From: an uncultured Polyangiaceae bacterium
GTDB lineage: Bacteria > Desulfobacterota > Binatia > UTPRO1
DNA length: 64,000 nt
Direction: 5' to 3'
Assembly: GCA_964631985.1 (NCBI GenBank)
Contig: CAZWAX010000001.1
Span: 943-64,942 of the forward strand
This document shows, in pieces, positions 30,650 to 45,429 of the stretch. How positions within the stretch are numbered: the stretch's first letter is position 1; every line of letters begins with the position of its first letter. The notes beneath the pieces were generated by a model. That model saw only the letters and a list, made by a program, of their open reading frames with translations, had not been told where the DNA came from and did not search any database. A program made the translations under genes and the position numbers.

Positions 30650-31283
30650 CCAGTAGTAGTCGGAGCTGCGGCGCCTTGTCGATCGAGTTGATTCGCGAGC
30701 GCCGCCATCGGCTCGTCGAGGGCCGAGGCTGCTGCGCCTTCACGCTCGACGGCGACGAAGCACGGTCGAGGACATCGGGGGCCCACATCGACAACGTCGA
30801 TCCGGGTGTAAGGTAGGCGGTATGCGGGGGCTCGCGGTGATCGCTGGCCTCGGGCTTGGTCGGCTGTCGTATACGGCACGCTATTGGCCCTGATCGCGGA
30901 ACCAAGGGCGAGGCGCACGGGTGCCGACCGCCGCCGCCGGTCGCGACGGTGAATGTCGCGGGCAACGTCCCGTGCTCGGGCTCGAAGGCAGCGAGGCTCG
31001 CGTCACCGCCGTGAGGCGGGTCCACGTCGAGGACGAGGAACCCCTAGGTCGTGCCGGTCGAGGTGCCGATGCTCGCGTGCGGCCACTCCGCCCACCAGCC
31101 GCGAATCGTGGCGGCATTGGTGGCGGCCTTCGCCGGCCAGCCCTTGAGCCTGGGGTGCTTGCCGGCGTCCGCGCAAACCTGGCCCTTCCGGCAGCTGCAG
31201 GTGCCTGCCTCGGTGATCTCGCAGACCGGCAAGACGCGCCAACCGCGGGCGGCGTAGCCGAGTGCAACCTCCAACAGCTCCAT
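30650..31283 (-). pseudogene. Bifunctional DNA primase/polymerase (PrimPol, N-terminal domain) gene disrupted by an in-frame TAG and downstream frame loss
   Basis: MELLEVALGYAARGWRVLPVCE...KHPRLKGWPAKAATNAATIRGWWAEWPHASIGTSTGTT-TAG(31044-31046)-GFLVLDVDPPHGGDASLAAFEPEHGTLPATFTVATGGGGRH matches the PrimPol N-domain consensus. Only about 125 codons are recognisable. Confidence 0.55.
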
Positions 31284-31672: not shown

Positions 31673-33034
31673 ATGAGCAGACGCACGCCGGGTGAACAGA
31701 TCGGGCCGTGGACCGTCGTCCGGGATATCGGACAAGGTGGCAACGGTGAAGTCTTCGAAGCGACCGCCGGGGACGGTGGCCGAGTCGCGCTGAAAGTCTT
31801 GAAGGCGATCAATCCAGCTGGGGAACCCTACGGCAGATTCTGCGATGAAGTAGCGATCATGACAAAGGTCGGACCGCACCCCGGGGTGCTCCCGCTCTTG
31901 GCTTCCTCGGTCCCACTTGAGCCCTCGCGAAAGAATCCGCCATGGCTTGCGACCCCAATCGCGGTTGCCATCCGTGACGCCATGACCGACCAGCCGGTCG
32001 AGGTGGTCGTGGAGGCAATCGCTAACGTCGCCGAGACGCTTGCCGATCTTCAAGCGAAGTTCGAGGCGTTCCATCGCGATATCAAGCCGCCGAATCTGTT
32101 CTCGTACGATGGCCGTTGGGTTGTTGGCGATTTTGGTCTGGCAGATTTTCCCCTGAACGCAGGGTTGACCCCGCAGAATCAGAAACTCGGGCCGGTGTTC
32201 TTCATCGCGCCCGAAATGTTGAGGGATGGCTCAGCTCCCAGCCCCACCGCGGATGTGTACTCGCTGGCCAAAACTCTTTGGGTACTAGCTACGGGGCAAA
32301 CCTACCCTCCTCAGGGCGAGCAGCGGATAGATGTCCCCGCGATGACCCTAGCCCACTTTATCGCTCACCCACGGGTGCGTACCCTGGACCGATTGGTCGA
32401 GCGCGCGACCCGGCACGATCCGACTGCGCGACCCTCAATGTCGGAGTTCGCGAGGGAGCTACGCGAATGGCTGAATCCAGTCGGGGCTGTTCCGTCACCG
32501 GGTGACGTGAGCCACCTTCGCGCGCGCTTCGAGGCTGCCGTTGAACCTGCGCGGCGCACCGCGGCCAGCGTTGAGGATTTGCAGGTGCAGGCAATGGAGA
32601 CCTTCAAAGAGATGCGCGTGGCAATGGCGCCTCTCTTGCGAACGGTCCAACAGGTTGTGCCAGCCGCATCGATGGATCCGCGGGACACGATAATTCTCGA
32701 GATTTGCGGGTACATCACTCCACTCAGCGAGCCGAAATTCATTTCGGCGAAGCATCTGACAATCATCGCCAGGCCGATTCCAGGCGATTCTTTCGCGCCC
32801 GTGTTGCGATGTGGCTTTGCACTGCAGCTGCGTCCCGACGGCAAGATGCACATTGGTGGTTCGGTTCTCGTTGGCGGACAAACCAAAGCCGATCAGCAAT
32901 GGAAGGGAATGTTTCGGGAGATGGTGTCAGTAGGGTCGCCGCGAGAACCCAACGCAGCAATGGAATGTGTGGCCGCGGTGCAAGCGGAGCTTCCGAGAGC
33001 CCTGGAAGCCCTTGTCCAAGCGTTGGAAAGGTAG
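31673..33034 (+). CDS. Hanks-type Ser/Thr protein kinase with an uncharacterised roughly 170-aa C-terminal domain
   Basis: GQGGNGEVFEA (Gly loop), VALKVLK (VAIK), HRDIKPPNL (catalytic loop), VGDFGLADF (DFG), APE. The C-terminal part has no recognisable motif. Confidence 0.8.
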   Translation: MSRRTPGEQIGPWTVVRDIGQGGNGEVFEATAGDGGRVALKVLKAINPAGEPYGRFCDEVAIMTKVGPHPGVLPLLASSVPLEPSRKNPPWLATPIAVAIRDAMTDQPVEVVVEAIANVAETLADLQAKFEAFHRDIKPPNLFSYDGRWVVGDFGLADFPLNAGLTPQNQKLGPVFFIAPEMLRDGSAPSPTADVYSLAKTLWVLATGQTYPPQGEQRIDVPAMTLAHFIAHPRVRTLDRLVERATRHDPTARPSMSEFARELREWLNPVGAVPSPGDVSHLRARFEAAVEPARRTAASVEDLQVQAMETFKEMRVAMAPLLRTVQQVVPAASMDPRDTIILEICGYITPLSEPKFISAKHLTIIARPIPGDSFAPVLRCGFALQLRPDGKMHIGGSVLVGGQTKADQQWKGMFREMVSVGSPREPNAAMECVAAVQAELPRALEALVQALER

Positions 33035-33197: not shown

Positions 33198-34913
33198 CTA
33201 GGCGGAACGTTGCATCGCGGCACTGAAAATAACGGCGAAGATCTCCACGTCACCGTCGCAGCGGAACACCTGATCCTTGCCCGTGTCCTTCTCTACGACG
33301 ATGCCGTCGTCGTACCGCGTCGCGTTGATGACCTTCGAGTACGGAATGTTCGTCGTCTTCCGTGACCCGTCGAGGATCAGCCTCTTGCTGGTCACGTAGA
33401 GGGTGCCTTGGTCGATCTCGTGGAGGACGTCCTCTGTGACGCGGTTCACCGTCGCAGAGCCCACGCGGTAGGCGACGCCCTTCATGATCGGCACGCGCAC
33501 AGTCGGCCCCGCGTAGCGGACCGCGCGCGTGCGCGTTCGGAGTTCGTGGTGGACTGCGGGGATCGTCGCGTGGCATTGCTCGCCGCGCTGAAGCCGGATC
33601 GAAGGCGTGATCAGGGGCAGCTCGCCGTTCTCGATCCGCCACAGGAGGCGGAAGCGGTCCAGCGTGGCCGCCGTGGCGTTGTCGTGGGTCAGCGTCACGT
33701 TCAACTGCCGGGCGAGCGCTGAGAGTTGCGCGTCTTCGTCGGGTGACAGTCGGCGGTCGCTGGTCGCGTTGTCTAGGACTCTCTGAAACAGCGGACCGAT
33801 CGACTCCGCTCGAATCGCGTTCGCGAGCTGGTCGGACATTCGGAGCTTCGTGGCGAGGTCGATCAGGCGCGTCTGTTCGGCCTCGGTCAGTTCGCGGTCG
33901 TCCGCGGCCGCGGCGAAATGATGCTCGTAGATCGGCCGCGTGACGGCTTCGTGCGCGCCGCGCACGTCGTTGTCGTCGAGCCCGAGGAGGCCCTGCAGGT
34001 GGCGAAGGTCGGCGACCTCGTCGTCCGACAGCGCATCATCGCGGACGGCGTGTCGCAGCACGGTCGCGTAGACCTCGCAGCCCTCCGCGCGGAAGTCCTG
34101 CGGCCGGATGCGGTACTGACGCAGGACGTCGCTGACCACTTCCTCGGTGATGTCCGGGATCGCCGTCGTCGCGAGCAGGTTGCCGATCTCTACTACGGCG
34201 TTCGCGCGCGGGCGTCGTCGGAACAGTCGTGCGAAGAACCCGACCTTGCGGAGGGGTGTGAGCGAGAAGCCGTTCAGCCCCGTCGCGGCAGGGGGTGTCG
34301 GCGGCGGTGTGGCGATCGCCTTTGGGCGAGAAGGCGGCGCGTCCTGCGGCTGCGGGTCGTGCGACGGAGAGTCCGCAGCGGGCGGCTGCTGGGGCGGCTG
34401 ATCCAACAAGGCCGCGGCCGTGCGGTAGGCCAGCGTTTTGGTGCTGCCGAGCTGAACGCTGCCGCCGTCGCGCTGTCCGAAGCTGTGGAGGCCGCCGGCG
34501 TAGTTCGCCTCGTGGTAGCGCATGGACGCGACGACCTTTGGGTTGCTGCACATGGCCTCGGCGATGGCGCCGACCTGTGCCTCCGGCAAGCCGCTGTCAT
34601 TAGGATCGTTCCACACGCGCCCGTTTCGATGCCGGTGGACCTGATGGACGAAGTACGTCGCCATGAGGACCTCGTTCCCCGGCATCGCGAGCGTGCCTTC
34701 GACCCGCGCGAACACCTCGCGAGAAGGTCTGTCCGCAGAGTCGACGCCAAGCCGGGTAGCCCACCGCTCCAGCCAGGCGGGTGGCGGGTACTTCGCGCGC
34801 AGTGCTTTGCTGATGAGCGTCGACATCTCGGACATCGAGATGTCGTCCGAGAAACTGATGCCGAGGTCACGGGCGTAGCTTCTTTGTCGTTCTGAGGCCG
34901 ATTCTAGCGACAT
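33198..34913 (-). CDS. Hypothetical protein with a Pro-rich linker, TerB-like repeats and a C-terminal bacterial PH-like domain
   Basis: ATG at 34913; the longer track ORF uses TTG. Repeats ...LSDDEVADLRHLQGLLGLDDNDVR... and ...ELTEAEQTRLIDLATKLRMSDQLANAIRAES are TerB/DjlA-N-like. C-terminal YVTSKRLILDGSRKTTNIPYSKVINATRYDDGIVVEKDTGKDQVFRCDGDVEIFAVIFSAAM looks bPH/GRAM-like. Confidence 0.5.
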   Translation of the reverse strand: MSLESASERQRSYARDLGISFSDDISMSEMSTLISKALRAKYPPPAWLERWATRLGVDSADRPSREVFARVEGTLAMPGNEVLMATYFVHQVHRHRNGRVWNDPNDSGLPEAQVGAIAEAMCSNPKVVASMRYHEANYAGGLHSFGQRDGGSVQLGSTKTLAYRTAAALLDQPPQQPPAADSPSHDPQPQDAPPSRPKAIATPPPTPPAATGLNGFSLTPLRKVGFFARLFRRRPRANAVVEIGNLLATTAIPDITEEVVSDVLRQYRIRPQDFRAEGCEVYATVLRHAVRDDALSDDEVADLRHLQGLLGLDDNDVRGAHEAVTRPIYEHHFAAAADDRELTEAEQTRLIDLATKLRMSDQLANAIRAESIGPLFQRVLDNATSDRRLSPDEDAQLSALARQLNVTLTHDNATAATLDRFRLLWRIENGELPLITPSIRLQRGEQCHATIPAVHHELRTRTRAVRYAGPTVRVPIMKGVAYRVGSATVNRVTEDVLHEIDQGTLYVTSKRLILDGSRKTTNIPYSKVINATRYDDGIVVEKDTGKDQVFRCDGDVEIFAVIFSAAMQRSA

Positions 34914-35036
34914 GTTGCGTGCTCCCACCACACCGTGCGGCGCACGGTCAAGGCCCACCAGCGGCGACGACGCTGCCGGTTGCAAGGCGCCCCGGTCGGG
35001 CCTACACGCGCGGCACCACGAACGAAGGAGGACTTC

Positions 35037-35700: not shown

Positions 35701-36699
35701 CTACCCCTTCTTCGTGATCCGAAGATAGCGGTCGAACACGGGGTCTCCTTCCTGAAGCACGGTGGGGGTCTTCGGCACTGCCTCAACCGGCAGATCCCAA
35801 ACGGCCTCACGGGCCTGGTCTTCGACGTGTATCGAGGCCGAGAAGAACAGGTGGCCGCTACTACCACTCGAGTACGCGCGCTCCATCGCCCGGCGCAGCA
35901 TCGAGAAGTCGATCTCGACACTGAACGGAAAGGCGTTCCTCAGAAGCGATACTGGCACCCGTACGCGAAGCCATTGCAGCCGCGCCGGACGCAACACAAA
36001 CCGCCGCAGGCGATGATGGCCGGCGAGGCGCGCAAAGTCGTTCTCCACGACCGTGCGAAGATAGCCGGCGAGAGGTTGCCCGGCGATTAGGTGCGCCGCG
36101 ATGCTGCACATCGCACTCGTGTACGCAGCCTGGTCCTCAGATGTCAGACTGAGCCTCTGGCGGTTCGTAGTAACCGTCATCGTACCGTTGTTGCTCATCA
36201 CCAAGCCGCCATTGTGGACTACCGCGCCCCGGTAGGGTGCGAAAACACGATAGAGTTCCCAGAAAGCGTGGCTTAAGTCGGGCCACGCCGAGAAGAGCGG
36301 AGGCTCCATCAGCGATCCGCGGTTGCGCAGATCGTTGTAGGCGTCCCGCTTGTCGCTAAAGCGCCACGGCGCTTCGCCGTTGGCGCGAAGAATCCACTCG
36401 ACGGTCAGGTCCTGAAGCTTGAAGGCGGTGCTGAACGCGAGCGGCCGGAAGCGTTCGAGCGCGTTGCGAACGGCGCCTGCTGAAAAGCTTTCCTCGAGTT
36501 GAAGAACAAGGTCTCCCCGAAACTCGCCCGACGTGTTCACGTCCCCAAGCGTGATAGTCATGCCTCCATCCGCCGCCTCGCTTTGCCGCCACAATGTCGC
36601 TCGCAGAAATTCAAGCGCATCGCGCTCGTAGGCAACCGAGTCTTCGAGATCGCTTGGGTTTCCAGTGAACCTGCTGGGGTGTGGCGGTATGCCACCCAT
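35701..36699 (-). CDS. Hypothetical 332-aa protein; last gene of the STAND-linked operon
   Basis: ATG overlaps the upstream stop (TGATG at 36697-36701). No recognisable domains. Confidence 0.55.
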   Translation of the reverse strand: MGGIPPHPSRFTGNPSDLEDSVAYERDALEFLRATLWRQSEAADGGMTITLGDVNTSGEFRGDLVLQLEESFSAGAVRNALERFRPLAFSTAFKLQDLTVEWILRANGEAPWRFSDKRDAYNDLRNRGSLMEPPLFSAWPDLSHAFWELYRVFAPYRGAVVHNGGLVMSNNGTMTVTTNRQRLSLTSEDQAAYTSAMCSIAAHLIAGQPLAGYLRTVVENDFARLAGHHRLRRFVLRPARLQWLRVRVPVSLLRNAFPFSVEIDFSMLRRAMERAYSSGSSGHLFFSASIHVEDQAREAVWDLPVEAVPKTPTVLQEGDPVFDRYLRITKKG

Positions 36700-37946
36700 C
36701 ACTCGTTGCCAGACGCCAACCAGCCGGATCTGAACCGTCTGGTGAAGCGAATATCGAACATGCGCTCCATCTGCCGCAGCCAAGGACCCTGGAGCGGGTG
36801 AAGATAGTCCCTCGGTTCCATCAGCGCCCCGACAGGTGCGAAGGCATATGTGAAGTCGCGCCAGGCGTCGGTCAGCTGCGGGCCCGCAGGCGCCCCCCCG
36901 CGCGGAAGCGTCTCGTCGCCAGGGGAGAAGGCGTACTCGAAGGGTTCGCACCAGGACGCTTCAAGGTAGCGCTCTCCCGTCACATAGTCGTCGGGCGAGG
37001 CGATAACCTTCTGGCGCATCTCCCGCGCCGCCGCTGAAAACTCACCCACGACATTGCTGTAGATGTTGGCGAGATCCTGGTGGTCCTTGCCATAGAGGGC
37101 GATGACCCTCTCCAGGGCGTGGACGGCATCCTTCGCGAAGTAGTCTCCGAAGAGGTTGAGATTCTCCTCGACACTCGTCCACGAGCCTTCGACGGCGCGT
37201 TCCATCGCGGCGAGCAACTCCCCAGGCTTCTTTTCCAGCATGCTGCCCATCATTGTGGCGAACGTGTCGTCGTGCGTCCGATCCGGCGCGGGCAAGTTCG
37301 GATTGCTAAGGCAGAGCTGGATGAAGATGTTGAAGAGTGTCGCCAGCCGGAAGCGCTCGGCCGCTCTGACGCGCGCAAGAAGTATCCGGAGACAGTTGAG
37401 CGGCGTCCCGTACCGAGGGTCTCGCGCGAAGTCTGCGACCAACAGATCGAAGGCCCGACCCTTCAGATCTCGCAACGCGATTGTGAGCTGCATGAGGGTA
37501 GCCGATGCTTCGAAGACGAAACGGGCGGCCCTGGAATACCACAGGTACTGGCGTTCGAACCCGTTGTGCAGATCGAGCATCTCCTGGGTTACGCCAATCG
37601 TCTCTGTCCCAAGGGGAAGCGGCAGATGTCGCCCCCGATTGCGGCCGAGCCTTTTGGCGAGCAGCAGCGTGATCGCGCTTCGTCCGAGGGCCGAGCCGAA
37701 GAGGTGATTTCCGACGGGGGTCAGAAGAACGTCGTGAAAGTGGCGTCGTTCATGGACCCTGGTCGTCATCCGGTGCGCCAGATCGGCCTGTTCCGCGTCG
37801 GAAAGATGCGCCGCCGCGGCGAACGTTTCCGCGGGTGGTTGTCCGGTGGCAAGGAGTAGATCGACGTCCTCCGACGCCTTCCGGTTCAACAACACTGCGA
37901 GCGAGGGGACGTGAAGAAGGCCGTAGCGCTTGTTGCAGAAGTCCAA
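36699..37946 (-). CDS. Hypothetical 415-aa alpha-helical protein; third gene of the STAND-linked operon
   Basis: Long ORF whose only in-frame start near the 5' end is TTG at 37946, 15 nt after the upstream stop. The start is uncertain and no domain is recognised. Confidence 0.5.
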   Translation of the reverse strand: MDFCNKRYGLLHVPSLAVLLNRKASEDVDLLLATGQPPAETFAAAAHLSDAEQADLAHRMTTRVHERRHFHDVLLTPVGNHLFGSALGRSAITLLLAKRLGRNRGRHLPLPLGTETIGVTQEMLDLHNGFERQYLWYSRAARFVFEASATLMQLTIALRDLKGRAFDLLVADFARDPRYGTPLNCLRILLARVRAAERFRLATLFNIFIQLCLSNPNLPAPDRTHDDTFATMMGSMLEKKPGELLAAMERAVEGSWTSVEENLNLFGDYFAKDAVHALERVIALYGKDHQDLANIYSNVVGEFSAAAREMRQKVIASPDDYVTGERYLEASWCEPFEYAFSPGDETLPRGGAPAGPQLTDAWRDFTYAFAPVGALMEPRDYLHPLQGPWLRQMERMFDIRFTRRFRSGWLASGNE

Positions 37947-37961
37947 AGCTTCGGGTCCGCG

Positions 37962-38303
37962 CTACTTGGTGACGGCGATCCGTATGCGCTGCTCGATGCT
38001 CGCTGCGTCCGAGGACTGATCGATCGCGATGATCACATCGTCGGCGCCGCGCACGACGACCGACACGGACTGCTGCGGCGACGCGTCGCGCGCGGCGAGC
38101 AGACGCCGGGCGATCCCGGCGAGGCAGGCCGCGAAATGCTGAGCGCCCACGGCGATGGTGACGACGTCGGCGAGCTGCTCCAGATAGGAGTCGAGGATTG
38201 TGTCAGTTGCGTTGTCCAACGTCCGGCGCGATCCGTCCTCCGTATCGTAGGCCAAATCCTTCGCGAGTTTGGGCGGCGCGACGATCTCGAAGACGATGTC
38301 CAT
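37962..38303 (-). CDS. Small 113-aa hypothetical protein (possible Roadblock/LC7-like or STAS-like fold); second gene of the STAND-linked operon
   Basis: ATG at 38303 lies 85 nt downstream of the STAND gene. ...SVSVVVRGADDVIIAIDQSSD... is the only weak fold hint. Confidence 0.45.
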   Translation of the reverse strand: MDIVFEIVAPPKLAKDLAYDTEDGSRRTLDNATDTILDSYLEQLADVVTIAVGAQHFAACLAGIARRLLAARDASPQQSVSVVVRGADDVIIAIDQSSDAASIEQRIRIAVTK

Positions 38304-38388
38304 CGTGTCCCCATCTCATAGGAGTTCGATCCGAGGTTCAACTGGCGGCGGCATGGAGCCGACGGATATTGCTTCGGGAAGGAGTGCC

Positions 38389-41300
38389 TCAAAGACTCCC
38401 AGCGTCAGGATCGGGCGTCATGATAGGCCACGGTCGACCGGAGGCAAGATCGGGATGGCGCGGCCCGGCTTCCGGTGAGCCGTACTCATCCCAGATCCGG
38501 TCTACTTGGTTCAGGCAACGCGCGGCTGCGTCCAACGCCCCACCGTCTGTCGTCAGTGCAAGAAGTTTCTCGCGAAGTTCAACGGCAGGGACGGGAACAA
38601 TCGTGAACGCCCCCTTCAAATTCTCGGAAGGTACATGCTGGGTGACCACGCGCCCGATCGCCCGCCGCGAGATGAGAGAGCGCCAACCTCCCTCAAAGCT
38701 GAGTAGAAGTAGTACGCCTTCGGCATCGGGATTCTCCACGACGGCCTCGGCGAGCATTGCTAGGCCCGGCGTTGATGCGCCGTTGCTGAGGAACCCATAG
38801 ACGTGGGCACGCAGCGCAGGATGTGCGTCGAATAACTCGCCGATGTGGCCGGCCATGTGCCAGCGATCGAGGTTCCCGTCCGCAAAGGAACCGCCTGCAG
38901 CCAAGTCCACAAAGCGGCGCGCGGCGGAGAGGGTTCTCCGGCGCGTGACGGCGTCGCGCCACACGTGACTGTCATAGAAGGCGGGACAGGCTTCAGCAAA
39001 AGCAAAGAGCGCGTTTTCAGCGTCAACACCAGGTGCTTCGCCGAAGGCACGGATCATTTCCTCCAAACGATCGGGCCTTCGTTGCTCCTCCGGCAGGGTC
39101 TGAACAACAGTGAGCGCCTCAGCTGGAAAATTCGTGAACGGCAGTAGTCGCAGCCATTCACTGACTTCGTAGCCATCACTCAGGATCCAGCTTTGGGTTC
39201 TGCCAGCCTCCATGACCTCAGCGAGGCCTGTCTTCACGACGCCGATGTCGACGATGTGACCGGACAGCACTTGGTTCAGAAGTAGTGCGGCCCGTAAGCG
39301 GCGTGGTGCGATGGCGATCAGACTTTGAACCGTCGCATCACGCTGGCCATGCGGCAGCCGCGATGCCACGACGCCAAGCGCGAGGCCGAGCTTTTTCCGC
39401 TCTTCCGGCACGCCGTCGGCGATCAGTGGCTCAAGCGCTGCGAAGATTGTCTCCGCTTCCACCGAAGTCGCTGAAGGATTGGCGGCGCGAGCGGCTCTTT
39501 TCTCTTCCACGCGTGAGAAATCCGGACCGCCGAAAACCCGCCTGCTGTTCGGCGGATCGTTCGCCTTCTGCCATCTGGCCGCGAGGACGTGCGCGGCAGC
39601 TTCGCCGAAATGGTCGTCGATAAGATACTCTCGCATCAAAGCGGCTGTCTCCGGAGCGTCGATGGACAGGAACGCGTGCTGGTACTCATTCGTATGCGGT
39701 GTGATGGCTTCGGTCGCGGCTTCGCTGTGGGCTCGCCCACCGGCTGCTTGCGCTTCGGCACGGAAGGCGCGATAGTGGCGGAGGTTGTCGTCCAGCAAGC
39801 GCCTCAACAATGGCAGCAGCGCGATAGAGGGGGCCTGGCTTGCTAGCGTTGCGATGCTAGCCGTCTGCCAGCGCTTCGCGGTACCGGAAGCCAGCATGCG
39901 GTCGCCCCACTCCTGGGCGATTGCCTGAATAGTCGCACGTGAATCAGCGTCGAACGGTCTGCCGTGATCGCCCTCCCCACTTGGATGACGCGAGAGAAGC
40001 CCTGCCAAGCGCGCCATTTGGTCGTTATCGGCTTGCAGAGAGCGGGCATGGATGGCGGCAACGAGACTGGCGCCGCGGGCATGCGCGAGCCGACGCAAAA
40101 GGGTGTGGTAGCGGTCACTTGCGGCTTGGTCGTATGTACCGTCCACATTCAGCCGCGCCCGTGCTTCGTTCAGTGCCTCGATCATGCGGCCGACGGCCAA
40201 CGGTCCGAGCGCGGAAGCCGCGGCTTCTCCGCGGTCATGCGGCCGGGTGGCGTCCATCAGCGCAAGTTCCAGTAGTGCGTCGTCTTCGAGACTGAAACAG
40301 GCTGCAGCGAGAATATCATCGGCTCCGTAGAATAAGGTTCGCCCGGTGCGCACGCGGGTGAGGAGGCCGCTCGCGACAGCACGGGGATAACGCTGGCGCG
40401 CTTCGTAGACGAGATGAACCGCCGCGTCCCGCCCCTCGGTTTCCATCGACCCGATGAAGTCGGCCAGCTCTAAAGCCCGGTCTTCGGCAAAATCCGAGTA
40501 CACGATCGAGTGAAGCCGGTCGTAATCCGAAACTCCTGTCGCGATCTCCCGCTCGCGCGCAGCGGCGAGGCGCTCCTTGACGCGCTCGTCGGGAACGTTG
40601 TGGACGAACCTGTTGCGCGCAACCAGGTCGATGGTCTCGTCGCCAGCGTACCGCAGCACGTCGGCGACGTGTCGATCCGCGCCCCGAAAAGCCAGCGCCT
40701 CAACCGTCGAGACTTGAACTTCAGTCGCGGGATCATCGCTTGCGATAGCGGTCGCGAGATCGAGACCGTCGATGCCGCTGTTGGATGCCATCTCGTGCAG
40801 CAGGACGGTCCGCACCTTGGCCGACAGCCCACAGATCCTCGTCACGGCATCACTCCCGAGGATTGACGGTCGGAACCGGCTGCAGTTGCGCAGCGCCTTG
40901 AGACTCGTCTGATCGTCCTCGTGCGTGATGAGCGGCCAGACCGCGTCAAGGAACTCAGGGCGTCCCGACGCGAGCATAAAACGCAATGCGCGATCCACCT
41001 TGCCCGGCGTATGCCAGCGAGCGACGAGCCCCCGGATTGTTGGGGCGATGGGCGCCCACACTTCCTCCGTCGCCCTGAAGATCATCTCGGCCGCGAGAAT
41101 GGGATCGACTTCGAACGCCGAGAGAATGGCCTTGCCGCACACGGCCTGCTGGTGCGCATCGCTGCGCGCCATACGTTCCACCGCGAAGAGAATGGCTTCT
41201 TCCCATATGGGAAGGTTGAATACTTCAGCCTTCAGCGCCTCGCGGCTCCTCGGATCATCGGCCGCCGCGGTAGTCCGGCGCTCTACGGAGTGAGAGGCAT

Positions 41301-42729
41301 ACCACTCCTGAAACTGCTGGTGCTGGAAAGAGTAGCCCAGCGTGCCGCCCGTGCGGATCAGAACATGATTGCTGGCGAGCACGTCCAGCACGTCGTCCGG
41401 CTGGGACGGGATAGTGATCTGCCCGTCCCCGATCAGCGTTGCCTGGGTTTGAGAGACGGTCCGCCGGGCGTTCGTGTCGGCGATAGACGTGTTCTGTGTC
41501 CGCGTGGCGAACACGGCGAGACACTCCAGATGATCCTGCTGGAAACCATGCACAACGTCGCGCAGCGTCTCGGCGCGACGGGCATCAGTTTCGTGCACAG
41601 TCACGAAGTGCCGCAGGAGTTCCTCCTTGGTCGTTGGGAAGGGCGCGCCTTCAGGAAGGGAGAGCAGTGCGGTGAGATAGAGTGGGATCGTTACGAGCTC
41701 GCGGACACCAGGCGTGCGCCAAGCCTGATCGACGATCCTCAGGCCTGCTTCGCCGCGCATCGCGGCGGCGATCTGCGTTTGCTGCTTTTGGTTGAGCGGC
41801 AGGAGATCGACGCGCATCCCGACGAAAGGAACGTCGAGGGCGTGCTTGCGGGTCGAGACGATGAAGCCGAGCTCAGGTAGCTCCGCCATCAGGCGATCGA
41901 CCTGTACGCGCGCTCGCGTCCGCCCGTCCGGACTCAATTCGTTCCAGCCGTCGAGCAGCAGGACAACACCGGGTTTGGCGGCGACTGCACGGAAGTCGTC
42001 TTCCGATATGGCCTGGAACCCCTGACGAGTGAGGATGGACCCTAGCAGTGACAACGTTTGCGTGGCCCAATCGGCGAGCGGGATGATGATGGGCGTGCCT
42101 CCGGCGTCGGCGATGAGGGCTTGGGCGATCTGGAATAGTGTCGTCGTCTTTCCTGTGCCGGGTCCGGCGACGAGGATTAGATCGTCGAGCGACGTGACGA
42201 CGCGCGCGAGCGCGGTTGTCGTCGCAGGCTGACCAAAGCCTTCTACCTCCAGCGTGAGCGCTACGGCACTGGATGGCCATTTGGTTGTGCGGCGGAAAAC
42301 AGAGAGATCCGCCTCAGCAGCGGCGCGAAGACGATCCGCCGGTTGCCCGACGGCAATAGGCAGAGGCCCACGGGACGCTTCGTTCTGCAACACGCGGCGT
42401 CGAGCGTCGTCTTCCGCTAGCTTCTTCCATTCGCGTAGACGCTCGATGGTGAATTCTGGATCCTTATCGTCGATAGCCTTGCCGTGATTGCGACACATCC
42501 AGATGCCGTTGCTTGCGGAACGGCGTTCCGCGGATGACATGTTTGCGTCACCGCGGGGGCTGCGGTCGGATTCCACGGCGCCGATGATGTGCGCCGCCGT
42601 GCCGAGATTGATTTCACCGCCGACGGTCAGCGCACGACAAGATGGATAGGAGCAAAGCCAGCCCGCGCGCTTAGCGATCTGGGTCTTTATCCGGTCTGTG
42701 AACTCGTCTCTGTTTCTGTTTCCTGGCAT
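38389..42729 (-). CDS. STAND-class NTPase: N-terminal HNH-like nuclease motif, NACHT NTPase module and long C-terminal HEAT/ARM-like repeats (antiviral-STAND/Avs-like architecture)
   Basis: HNH-like segment: C-x2-C (CSYPSC)...AAHII...N-x4-C-x2-H (NGIWMCRNH). Walker A: LILVAGPGTGKTTTL. NACHT-type Walker B: VVLLLDGWNEL. Roughly 900 aa of helical repeats follow. Confidence 0.8.
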   Translation of the reverse strand: MPGNRNRDEFTDRIKTQIAKRAGWLCSYPSCRALTVGGEINLGTAAHIIGAVESDRSPRGDANMSSAERRSASNGIWMCRNHGKAIDDKDPEFTIERLREWKKLAEDDARRRVLQNEASRGPLPIAVGQPADRLRAAAEADLSVFRRTTKWPSSAVALTLEVEGFGQPATTTALARVVTSLDDLILVAGPGTGKTTTLFQIAQALIADAGGTPIIIPLADWATQTLSLLGSILTRQGFQAISEDDFRAVAAKPGVVLLLDGWNELSPDGRTRARVQVDRLMAELPELGFIVSTRKHALDVPFVGMRVDLLPLNQKQQTQIAAAMRGEAGLRIVDQAWRTPGVRELVTIPLYLTALLSLPEGAPFPTTKEELLRHFVTVHETDARRAETLRDVVHGFQQDHLECLAVFATRTQNTSIADTNARRTVSQTQATLIGDGQITIPSQPDDVLDVLASNHVLIRTGGTLGYSFQHQQFQEWYASHSVERRTTAAADDPRSREALKAEVFNLPIWEEAILFAVERMARSDAHQQAVCGKAILSAFEVDPILAAEMIFRATEEVWAPIAPTIRGLVARWHTPGKVDRALRFMLASGRPEFLDAVWPLITHEDDQTSLKALRNCSRFRPSILGSDAVTRICGLSAKVRTVLLHEMASNSGIDGLDLATAIASDDPATEVQVSTVEALAFRGADRHVADVLRYAGDETIDLVARNRFVHNVPDERVKERLAAAREREIATGVSDYDRLHSIVYSDFAEDRALELADFIGSMETEGRDAAVHLVYEARQRYPRAVASGLLTRVRTGRTLFYGADDILAAACFSLEDDALLELALMDATRPHDRGEAAASALGPLAVGRMIEALNEARARLNVDGTYDQAASDRYHTLLRRLAHARGASLVAAIHARSLQADNDQMARLAGLLSRHPSGEGDHGRPFDADSRATIQAIAQEWGDRMLASGTAKRWQTASIATLASQAPSIALLPLLRRLLDDNLRHYRAFRAEAQAAGGRAHSEAATEAITPHTNEYQHAFLSIDAPETAALMREYLIDDHFGEAAAHVLAARWQKANDPPNSRRVFGGPDFSRVEEKRAARAANPSATSVEAETIFAALEPLIADGVPEERKKLGLALGVVASRLPHGQRDATVQSLIAIAPRRLRAALLLNQVLSGHIVDIGVVKTGLAEVMEAGRTQSWILSDGYEVSEWLRLLPFTNFPAEALTVVQTLPEEQRRPDRLEEMIRAFGEAPGVDAENALFAFAEACPAFYDSHVWRDAVTRRRTLSAARRFVDLAAGGSFADGNLDRWHMAGHIGELFDAHPALRAHVYGFLSNGASTPGLAMLAEAVVENPDAEGVLLLLSFEGGWRSLISRRAIGRVVTQHVPSENLKGAFTIVPVPAVELREKLLALTTDGGALDAAARCLNQVDRIWDEYGSPEAGPRHPDLASGRPWPIMTPDPDAGSL

Positions 42730-42870
42730 CGGGCAGCGCGCTACTCAAAGGTTCGCCCGGCGACCCGGGCGGGGGCGACTATACCAGTTCGGGATGTAGG
42801 CTCGAATGGAGAGCTTCACACGCTTCGAACTTCTCGATTGATCTACAGGGTGATCAGGCAAACGCGATGA

Positions 42871-43323: not shown

Positions 43324-45429
43324 CTAACCTTCTTCTGCGCACGACGGACGTGGCGTAAGATAGACCGCAACAGGTGACCACTTGGTGATGATCTGCGTGC
43401 AGTCATCGTCCAAGACTTTCGAGCACGGGCACCCCCGATACGGCGTCGTGCACAGCGAACACTCACTGTCGTCGACGATCATAGCTACCGCAGGAACCAC
43501 GCATCCGGCTCGCGCGGCTTCGGCAGGGTAGGTCTTGTCGTCGGGGTCGGGTAGGTACTCGACGAGGACGTTCTTCCCGACGACCTTGAGATCGTACAAC
43601 CCACGTTCGAGCTCGAGGCGGTCTATCTCAAGGACTCTGTTAAGGGTCAGGCACTCGAGTGCATCCGGTCTCGGCTCATCCGAGTCGCCATCGCCAACGA
43701 GCTTCTTGAGGGCGTCGCCCAATCGCACGGGATCGCCGAGCAGCGGGGCTACGACTGTAGACCACTGAGGCAAGAACTCGGCCACGTCGTCGAGGTGTCC
43801 GCACACGGAAACAATCAAAGCCGAGCAGCCAATGGGATAGGCGATCGAAAATCCGATCAAGCGATCTGACCGGCGCACATACCGCCGGACGAGTTCCTGC
43901 AGAGCCTCTATGGTCGTCGCTACCGCGGAGACCTCTGGATGCCATACCGTTCCGAAGTTCACGTCCAGATCCTCGATCTTTACCAGCAGGACGTCAGCGT
44001 TCAACTCGATCCGCATCTCGTGACGCGCGACCGCCTTTACGAGTTCCAACGACTCCGCCTCCACGAATGGACCTCCGCCATCGCCGATCTCCAATTTGCG
44101 GGCTGGCAAGATGTGCAAGCGGTCGCGCGCGAGAATCCGCTCGAGTGGAAGGAAACTCATGCCTGCTCGTATTCCTCCCCCCCGCGCAATGCGGAACGAG
44201 GCCGGAGAATCCTTACTCGGGGCATCACCAGCTTCTGGCGCTGGGATGGGGCCGAACTGCGCGGCCGGTGGTGCGCCCAGATATTCGCCGACGAGATGGT
44301 TGTCGCGGAAGTAATCGGAGAGCAGACGTTTCCAGAGCGCGACAGGGATGTCTCCGTCGACGCGCCACAGCTTCAGATAGTCTGGCGCGCGGTTCGCCTT
44401 CGAGAGGTCTTTGCCTCGTCGATCTGTGAGGCCGTCCTCATCGTAGATCCGCACTGCCCCATCGAAGTGATCGAGGTTGCCGTTCGGTGCGACAATCGAA
44501 TGTGCGTACCGACACGCGTATCGGACTCCATCCACTCCGAACGTCGAGGCCGCGCGGACTTCCTCCACGGCGAAGATCCGCTCTCCATCGCGGTCGCCCC
44601 ATCGGAAGTCTGTGAATTCAATTCCGCTGTAGAAGCGTTCGGCGTCGGTCGCCCGGTGTTGCGACACCCCGGCGGGAATGGTCGACAGGTCGTCGTTGAA
44701 CTCAGGACCCCACCAATACTGTTGTTCCATGATCGGCCTGTAGCTCTCGGCGAGGCCAACCATGTCGGGATCAAGAGCGACACGTGGACGAAGAGCAGCG
44801 GGCACGCCCGCGAGTGCGGAGAGAAAAGGGGCATTCAGGGAGTTAACTGGCACACCGCTCCGGCGAAGATCGCGGTGGGCGAAAAGGGCTAGGGGTCCGT
44901 GTCTGTATACCCCCGGACCAATGACGTCCACCTTGCTCAGATCGATGAGTCCGTCGCCGTCCAACTCCTTGAAGACCGCGGCGGCCACCCTCGTCGCAAT
45001 CCCGATATTGAACACGGCCACGCATTCCGCGACCAACAGCTGTAGGTCCCCACTAAGGCCGGCAGCGAGGAGCTTCAGCAGGGTCGCAAATTCGTCCTGC
45101 CGGGCGACGATCTTCTTCCCGCGAAACTCGGTCAATGCACCGCCGAGGTTTGCCCGCTCCTCAGGCGAATCAGCGACAAGCATCTGAGCGGTGAGACGAC
45201 AGACGCTCGGCGCAAAAAACACCGCCGTGGGATATGTCCAGCCGAATGGCCGACTCATATCGTGAGAGACGAGGCCCGGAATCCCCGCCTCCCAGTTCTC
45301 CTGCAGCGCCTGCACCAGCGCACCGGGAGAGAATCGCGTGTTCGCCCGCGTAAGTTGGTCGGTGGCGAGGGTCGCGATCAACTTCATGGCAGCCGAGGTC
45401 ATACCAGACGGGCGCGAACGATTCCGCAT
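43324..45429 (-). CDS. Hypothetical 701-aa protein with a C-terminal Cys cluster (SECSLCTTPYRGCPCS), flanked by direct repeats
   Basis: Uninterrupted ORF in the A/T-richer island. No recognised domain. The start is uncertain because no SD precedes any of three N-terminal ATGs. Confidence 0.5.
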   Translation of the reverse strand: MRNRSRPSGMTSAAMKLIATLATDQLTRANTRFSPGALVQALQENWEAGIPGLVSHDMSRPFGWTYPTAVFFAPSVCRLTAQMLVADSPEERANLGGALTEFRGKKIVARQDEFATLLKLLAAGLSGDLQLLVAECVAVFNIGIATRVAAAVFKELDGDGLIDLSKVDVIGPGVYRHGPLALFAHRDLRRSGVPVNSLNAPFLSALAGVPAALRPRVALDPDMVGLAESYRPIMEQQYWWGPEFNDDLSTIPAGVSQHRATDAERFYSGIEFTDFRWGDRDGERIFAVEEVRAASTFGVDGVRYACRYAHSIVAPNGNLDHFDGAVRIYDEDGLTDRRGKDLSKANRAPDYLKLWRVDGDIPVALWKRLLSDYFRDNHLVGEYLGAPPAAQFGPIPAPEAGDAPSKDSPASFRIARGGGIRAGMSFLPLERILARDRLHILPARKLEIGDGGGPFVEAESLELVKAVARHEMRIELNADVLLVKIEDLDVNFGTVWHPEVSAVATTIEALQELVRRYVRRSDRLIGFSIAYPIGCSALIVSVCGHLDDVAEFLPQWSTVVAPLLGDPVRLGDALKKLVGDGDSDEPRPDALECLTLNRVLEIDRLELERGLYDLKVVGKNVLVEYLPDPDDKTYPAEAARAGCVVPAVAMIVDDSECSLCTTPYRGCPCSKVLDDDCTQIITKWSPVAVYLTPRPSCAEEG

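Follow-up and report, generated by a model that had tools for sequence, protein, structure and literature searches.

The window analysed here is a stretch of 64,000 nucleotides (nt) from contig CAZWAX010000001.1 of an uncultured Polyangiaceae bacterium (assembly GCA_964631985.1). Between positions 35701 and 42729 its minus strand carries four consecutive genes, the first of which encodes an HNH-NACHT STAND protein of 1446 residues, and an earlier sequence-only reading had taken them for a candidate multi-gene defence system. Our analysis indicates that this region very probably consists of three independently inherited modules abutting in one orientation within a defence-rich stretch of lower guanine-plus-cytosine (GC) content. 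Module 1 is the solo STAND gene (38389-42729), whose product combines HNH, NACHT, helical and NCAB2 regions. Module 2 is a two-gene cassette of 1.6 kb (36727-38341, minus strand), delimited by blastn and by the gene maps of loci L001-L004, which comprises the gene of a 113-residue EACC1-like protein (37962-38303) and the gene of a 415-residue protein with an HExxH…E pattern (36699-37946, with a TTG start). Module 3, solo again, is the gene of a 332-residue HEPN-like protein (35701-36699, from an internal ATG). The four genes are not regarded as one system because their families do not co-occur and because DNA homology breaks at the module borders; functional cross-talk among the modules in the present genome is considered very unlikely.

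Homology breakpoints and gene neighbourhoods

The four open reading frames (ORFs) lie on the same strand and are joined exactly as previously described, with 85 nt between the 1446- and 113-residue genes, 15 nt between the 113- and 415-residue genes and, at the last junction, the sequence AGTGATG (36697-36703), which contains a TGATG overlap of 1 nt. An identical four-gene arrangement is found in an independent read-set assembly (Logan contig L005). For the 332-residue gene, the automatic ORF call begins further upstream, at a GTG (36951), but about 40 homologues measure 320-330 residues, and the true start is therefore taken to be the ATG at 36699.

DNA comparisons place the borders between the modules. 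With the metagenomic loci L001-L003, the window shares 89% identity from 38341 to 36727 only (blastn), that is, from 38 nt before the ATG of the 113-residue gene to 28 nt short of the stop codon of the 415-residue gene. In line with this, the 415-residue protein ends in ...RSGWLASGNE and its counterpart P0001 in ...RSP, the last nine or so codons of the window gene being derived from the junction. On the other side, similarity to five NACHT loci is restricted to the ORF itself (38401-42740) and ends at 38401-38404; the junction between modules 1 and 2 (38342-38400) is homologous neither to the NACHT relatives nor to the L001 cassette. The 415-residue gene has been deprived of its own 3' end where it meets module 3, and the TGATG overlap is best explained as an accident of juxtaposition: the truncated gene now reads on to the first stop codon, which by chance overlaps the ATG of the 332-residue gene. 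The tight translational coupling that had been proposed for these genes is hence not retained, since homology ends 28 nt before the stop and the overlap is a junction artefact.

Searches for signals of integration or of separate transcription were negative. Promoter and terminator counts were at the level of shuffled sequence, with neither a promoter-like nor a terminator-like site within the junctions; direct repeats, inverted repeats and target-site duplications around the cassette were limited to chance-level short repeats, and a scan of the whole window revealed no integration-site tRNA. The module borders are thus without tRNA, flanking repeat or terminator.

Gene neighbourhoods were surveyed in 80 genome loci whose NACHT homologues are 36-66% identical to the window protein, as much as 10 kb of flank being included on each side. 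By tblastn, the 113-, 415- and 332-residue proteins had no match in these 80 loci. Reciprocally, none of 35 loci with genes of the 415- or 332-residue families carries a homologue of the 1446-residue protein, and in these 35 loci the 332-residue family never stands beside the 113/415 pair. The proposed linkage of the three downstream genes to the STAND gene therefore finds no support in either set (0/80 and 0/35), a comparison made with this NACHT family, other STAND NTPases not having been screened. The closest NACHT relatives keep other company: one of 75% identity adjoins DarT-Macro genes, and one of 66% identity is embedded in a conjugative element, flanked by TraI on one side and TraW/TraU/TraN on the other, AbiE and HipA being also close by. 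Neither of these two relatives is accompanied by a homologue of the 113-, 415- or 332-residue genes.

These data bear directly on the possibility of a single defence system made up of all four genes, three of them accessory to the STAND protein. The shared orientation, the junctions of 85, 15 and -1 nt, the lack of a terminator-like site between the genes and the same order in the independent L005 assembly would all fit such a system, but they are confronted with the absence of co-occurrence in 80 NACHT and 35 accessory loci, with the different neighbours of the closest NACHT relatives, with homology breakpoints at the module borders and with a junction-derived 3' end of the 415-residue gene, so that we regard a single system as highly improbable.

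The HNH-NACHT-NCAB2 protein

The 1446-residue protein is a member of the already catalogued bNACHT type. Its domains follow the order HNH, NACHT-type P-loop, helical region of about 830 residues and NCAB2, and the STAND layout of nuclease effector, NTPase and helical sensor that had been read from the sequence is supported by the HNH matches, the P-loop, the NCAB2 domain and the conserved residues. NCAB2 (NACHT C-terminal alpha/beta 2, PF22726; residues 1359-1435, positions 38425-38655, minus strand) is matched in Pfam with an E-value of 1.6e-26 and a score of 93 bits, the cut-off being 27. It is precomputed for every one of the 120 best listed homologues, NACHT PF05729 for three of them and HEAT_2 for two. 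The helical repeats, earlier put at about 900 residues, correspond to a helical region of some 830 residues, the last ~80 residues of the protein being NCAB2 and not repeats.

The first 115 residues (42385-42729, minus strand) constitute an HNH (His-Me finger) nuclease domain of the Cap5/SPARHA type. Pfam gives a faint match to HNH_2, and, among the models of PADLOC-DB 2.0.0, residues ~7-114 match the HNH effectors of CBASS (SAVED-HNH), PDC-M68A and SduA with E-values from 2.7e-19 to 5e-7. Significant PADLOC matches are confined to the N-terminal ~140 residues; no STAND-type model of this collection matched the NTPase or the sensor, and the NTPase region produced three GajB P-loop matches only (residues 176-203, E-values of 0.02-0.1). 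Against the PDB, a profile of the family retrieved the SPARHA HNH effector (9om4, E-value 4.5e-14) and Cap5 (7rwk/7rwm/8ysq, ~1e-5).

The residues of the HNH signature are present as C26, C31, H47, N74, C79 and H82, with the amendment that the first cysteine pair, given earlier as CxxC, is C-x4-C (CSYPSC). C26, C31, H47, N74 and C79 are kept in 79-80 of about 80 genome homologues, so that the signature, whose conservation had been raised as a point to verify, holds across the family. Residue 82 (42484-42486) is His in 64 homologues and Cys in 16; because Cys replaces His in 16 of 80, this residue is more likely a structural zinc ligand, and the alignment suggests that it acts together with C26, C31 and C79 rather than as a catalytic metal-binding His. 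In the NTPase, the predicted Walker A GPGTGKTT (residues 189-196; 42142-42165, minus strand) and Walker B LLLDGWNEL (residues 257-265; 41935-41961, minus strand) are both found. K194, D260 and E264 are kept in 81/81 sequences, and the NACHT-like D-G-h-N-E signature reads D260-G-W-N263-E264, with an Asn in place of the first acidic residue that is invariant family-wide.

This NACHT family is large and highly uniform, with more than 1366 homologues. The best 120 listed are 59-75% identical to the window protein and nearly all measure ~1440-1500 residues (four have 1378-1416); Burkholderia, Ralstonia, Bordetella, Halomonas, Pandoraea, Bradyrhizobium, Mesorhizobium and Sphingopyxis are among the genera listed. 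In the mechanism that we propose, the helical and NCAB2 C-terminal part would bind a ligand, either derived from a phage or a perturbed host component; the NACHT domain, with NTP bound, would then oligomerize, and this oligomerization would assemble the HNH domains into the dimer-of-dimers required for activity; indiscriminate DNA cleavage would ultimately result in abortive infection.

A non-defence, NLR-like regulatory function has also to be considered for this protein. In the literature, we found no experimental test of the HNH-NACHT-NCAB2 family, and the PADLOC matches cover the HNH domain, with weak P-loop matches beyond it, two points which would be compatible with a regulator. The conserved N-terminal nuclease is nevertheless of the Cap5/SPARHA/PDC-M68A defence-effector type, relatives are carried as cargo by conjugative elements or lie beside DarTG, AbiE and HipA genes, and the family is spread patchily, with 44-66% identity, over Alpha-, Beta- and Gammaproteobacteria, Nitrospira and Binatia. 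There is accordingly very little chance that the protein is a regulator of this sort, and a role in defence is preferred.

Three observations were made around NACHT genes. Of the 80 NACHT loci, 18-19 form a subclade in which a conserved upstream partner of about 1004 residues has a stop codon that overlaps the NACHT start. It is found at L019:7000-10014 (plus strand), also in L024, L025, L026, L029, L030, L033 and L034, and further in L036, L051, L052, L073, L076, L077 and others; its full-length copies are 77-93% identical to one another and have no Pfam, PADLOC or PDB match. This partner was looked for in the window and is absent from it. With the NACHT gene, it may represent a genuine two-gene STAND variant or the cargo of one spreading element. 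In the window, an orphan ORF of 701 residues (43324-45429, minus strand), also without Pfam, PADLOC or PDB match, is separated by 594 nt from the NACHT gene downstream of it; this ORF was considered as a NACHT partner and rejected, having no family match and being absent from 80/80 NACHT loci by tblastn. Finally, the NACHT relative of 66% identity on the conjugative element is directly preceded by a gene for a UPF0149 + SEC-C protein (L119:7200-7916), and a C-terminal SEC-C zinc motif is also present in P0003 (JGI 3300071358 contig), a homologue of the 415-residue protein with 33% identity to it. These two occurrences of SEC-C are probably coincidental.

The EACC1-like and HExxH…E cassette

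The second module is rare. Among 5.8 billion (5.8e9) proteins, the 415-residue protein has three homologues, of 90%, 49% and 33% identity, and an exhaustive HMMER search for its family returned 66 representatives among 1.84e9 sequences, 35 of them at E <= 1e-10. Each of the three homologues has a small gene directly upstream, encoding 113, 154 or 123 residues, and neither a NACHT gene nor a 332-residue gene in its vicinity; in L001, the pair is preceded by a two-component system and followed by genes of the opposite strand. Most of 23 further metagenome loci with members of the 415-residue family likewise have an ORF of 90-170 residues directly upstream, and in most of these 23 + 4 loci the small ORF and the larger gene that follows it are spaced by -5 to +16 nt. 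With a hidden Markov model (HMM) of the 113-residue family, nine of these upstream ORFs were matched in a first pass and 11 after one iteration.

Within the family of the small protein, 5/18 members match Pfam EACC1, with a best E-value of 9.8e-7. The 18 aligned sequences share one layout: after a first beta-strand comes an acidic stretch, then a hydrophobic helix with many small residues, a basic segment and finally more beta-strands. The central helix, rich in A, G, S and T, is borderline as a transmembrane segment, the maximal Kyte-Doolittle hydropathy over 19 residues ranging from 1.28 to 2.16 across the 18 members (1.75 for the 113-residue protein).

The larger protein matched no model of Pfam, PADLOC or NCBIfam; NCBIfam returned noise only for all four proteins, and a search of PDB sequences with profiles of the 415- and 332-residue families gave nothing meaningful. 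The 40 members of its family, which diverge down to 15% identity, show no match to a Pfam enzyme family, a caspase or a cyclase. These 40 sequences define a common pattern, an HExxH(F)HD helix followed by an EASAxxxQ helix. In the window protein, the former corresponds to the HERRHFHD motif (H65 E66 x x H69 F70 H71 D72; 37731-37754, minus strand) and the latter contains E146 (37509-37511, minus strand), an invariant residue and candidate third metal ligand. E66, H69, D72, G79, P111 and E146 are invariant over the 40 members, and conservation is 90% or more at H65, F70, H71, A149 and Q153. In an AlphaFold2 model, the protein is all-alpha with both motif sites in helices, E146 being located in helix 142-160. 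This model had no Foldseek match in the PDB at E <= 0.001 and gave weak structural matches to DPP III (6.3) and LasB (5.2). On the strength of its motif, the 415-residue protein is a candidate gluzincin-like metallopeptidase. The H71-D72 doublet, together with upstream His residues and a downstream acidic residue, could alternatively belong to another helical metal-dependent enzyme such as an HD-type phosphohydrolase, an assignment that we judge improbable in comparison with the metallopeptidase.

Based on sequence features, the pair is best described as a variant of the two-gene conflict system predicted around EACC1. Where that system usually has a caspase, the pair would have a zinc metallopeptidase serving as output, and the role of the small protein would be to hold or to sense. 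A defence function is proposed for the pair because of its EACC1 link and of its location in the present island only. A role outside immunity or conflict, either as a toxin-antitoxin-like addiction cassette or as a housekeeping pair of membrane-associated regulator and protease, would agree with a tight two-gene cassette found at variable insertion sites, with metabolic neighbours elsewhere and without PADLOC match. We consider it unlikely, given that the small-protein family matches EACC1, described only from predicted conflict systems, and that the pair lies here between NACHT and HEPN-like genes and near PD-T4-6-like and PDC-S48-like genes; moreover, its rare and patchy distribution (66 representatives among 1.84e9) argues against housekeeping.

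The stand-alone HEPN-like gene

The 332-residue protein has a HEPN-like four-helix fold to which beta-rich N- and C-terminal parts are added. Its RGAVVH motif (36214-36231, minus strand) corresponds to R157-x4-H162, of HEPN type, with no exception at either residue among 34 sequences. The 40 homologues of the family, of 320-330 residues, occur without NACHT genes and without the 113/415 pair. No MNT gene or other conserved partner was detected, the upstream genes being mutually unrelated in the five loci compared. Homologues are often found near defence genes, such as HsdR with a DEAD helicase, AbiU2-HEPN with SNase and Mrr, or an AAA_13 ATPase. We infer from these features a new stand-alone HEPN-like family of putative RNases, similar to abortive infection (Abi) proteins or toxins, and the 332-residue protein would accordingly act as an RNase of Abi or toxin type. 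The claim that none of the three downstream proteins has an assignable domain thus holds at curated thresholds, below which a sub-threshold EACC1 match, a HEPN-like fold and an invariant HExxH motif can be recognized.

Two loci of this family have an ATPase gene directly before the 332-family gene on the same strand: in one, the gene of an 804-residue AAA_13 protein (L115:2500-4914) precedes it with a gap of 86 nt, and in the other it is preceded by the gene of a 286-residue DUF815/AAA_16 protein (L007:8913-9773). Lineage-specific ATPase partners are possible. A kinship between the 332-residue family and an AbiU2-HEPN neighbour was examined with hhalign, which shows no relationship.

Genomic context

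The GC content of the locus, about 0.62, is lower than that of the first 18 kb (about 0.70). Within 5 kb of the locus, just downstream of it, a Ser/Thr kinase (31673-33034, plus strand) matches the mad6/PD-T4-6 models of PADLOC with E-values of 1e-28 to 1e-24, and a 595-residue protein (33198-34985, minus strand) matches the PDC-S48 candidate defence model (1.8e-10). Because the stretch is defence-rich, a stacking of modules is a plausible origin for the locus. The lower GC content noted earlier for the island is confirmed in part. Of the mobile-element debris with which it was said to be filled, the sole clear remnant seen near the locus is a 79-residue Prim-Pol (PF09250) fragment (31044-31283, minus strand), called in the matching contig L005.

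Of note, the GC content falls near 18-19 kb from ~0.68-0.72 to ~0.60-0.66 and does not rise again before the window ends. The lower-GC "island" therefore exceeds 45 kb or represents the whole rest of the contig, and it also holds ordinary-looking genes, among them those of a multicopper oxidase, a Kelch/galactose-oxidase-like protein, a methyltransferase and OEP.

Weighing the three-module reading

Several observations weigh against the interpretation as three stacked modules or against the identity given to individual modules. Co-orientation and the lack of a terminator-like site in the junctions mean that co-transcription may well occur. In module 1, NACHT PF05729 (residues 189-321) reaches 21.5 bits, under the Pfam cut-off of 26.7, and the DGWNE of Walker B departs from the D[GAS]hDE consensus. 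In module 2, EACC1 is the sole Pfam match of the 113-residue protein and is below its cut-off (E-value 0.005; 17.2 bits against 23.6), the model of the 415-residue protein has a moderate predicted local distance difference test score (pLDDT 69.7), and the neighbours of the pair outside the window are metabolic (GH31, desaturase, peptidase S9, DAP dehydrogenase and radical SAM). In module 3, the HEPN matches in Pfam, each found in a single one of 34 members (RiboL-PSP, 0.011; Cthe2314, 0.058; MAE_28990, 0.17), are all sub-threshold, with none for the 332-residue protein itself, and R157 and H162 are, from their pattern, a candidate counterpart of the HEPN active site.

These points leave the independent inheritance of the three modules very probable. 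We advance as a tentative and somewhat doubtful proposal that the cassette is an undescribed EACC1 branch with an orphan HExxH…E metalloenzyme, operating as a membrane-proximal sensor and protease in abortive infection or addiction, and that the 332-residue gene is a new stand-alone Abi of HEPN type.

Significance and comparison with known systems

This locus illustrates how, in a defence island, the stacking of modules can leave genes that share an orientation, are separated by short gaps and even overlap by TGATG; whether genes form a system is properly tested by homology breakpoints and by the conservation of their neighbourhood. Beyond this, the HNH-NACHT-NCAB2 family emerges as a widespread and very conserved candidate of the STAND repertoire, present in many proteobacterial genera and in some cases on conjugative elements, for which the Cap5/SPARHA-type HNH domain offers a clear model of oligomerization-based activation. 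The EACC1 + HExxH pair would extend a so far purely computational class of conflict systems to a new enzymatic partner. Moreover, two uncharacterized families are now delimited together with their key residues, H65, E66, H69 and E146 in the 415-residue protein and R157 and H162 in the 332-residue protein.

Compared with HEPN RNases (MNT-HEPN, RnlA/LsoA, Csm6 and the AbiU2 type), the 332-residue protein differs by the absence of a curated HEPN match and of an MNT partner, by its extra beta-rich N- and C-terminal parts and by a Gly after the motif Arg. The residue at this position of the HEPN motif is usually polar.

The 113/415 pair resembles the EACC1 system in its 5' gene for a small EACC1-like protein, whose central helix, borderline hydrophobic and with many small residues, lies between alpha+beta elements, in the tightly coupled 3' gene for a putative enzyme and in its sporadic phyletic distribution. 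In the EACC1 system, the product of the 3' gene normally begins with a caspase and rarely with a cyclic nucleotide monophosphate (cNMP) cyclase, and the main text of the paper mentions no metallopeptidase version (Kaur et al. 2020, eLife, "System 4"; PMC7159879). The 415-residue protein, in contrast, has no caspase, cNMP cyclase or variable C-terminal effector and carries an orphan HExxH…E site instead; a further difference is that the 113-residue protein of the window is under the EACC1 cut-off.

Regarding module 1, HNH is listed among the N-terminal DNase effectors of bNACHT proteins, HEAT and NCAB figure in the domain key of the same study, and a "hybrid" sensor class is defined by repeats plus a small terminal domain (Kibby et al., 10.1101/2022.07.19.500537). 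The same authors report that bNACHT genes are rarely in operons, which are poorly conserved, and give D[GAS]hDE as the NACHT Walker B signature. Like bNACHT and NLR-related proteins (Kibby et al.; Kaur et al. 2021), the 1446-residue protein unites in one polypeptide an N-terminal enzymatic effector, a central NACHT-type NTPase, a superstructure-forming helical region and a small terminal domain, as in the "hybrid" class. It differs by its DGWNE Walker B, by its sub-threshold NACHT score and by belonging to an HNH…NCAB2 family that has no member among those tested, the domains tested experimentally being LRR, HEAT, REase, TIR, TM, NNH1 and NCH1 (Kibby et al., Fig. S3).

Finally, the N-terminal ~110 residues of the 1446-residue protein match in sequence the nucleases of Cap5 (CBASS SAVED-HNH) and of SPARHA (HNH-APAZ), which are activated by tetramerization and then degrade DNA indiscriminately (PMC12738770). 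By analogy, we infer that the HNH domain of the present family would be activated through NACHT oligomerization, the difference being that it is fused here to a STAND NTPase, whereas in Cap5 and SPARHA it is fused to a SAVED or an APAZ sensor.

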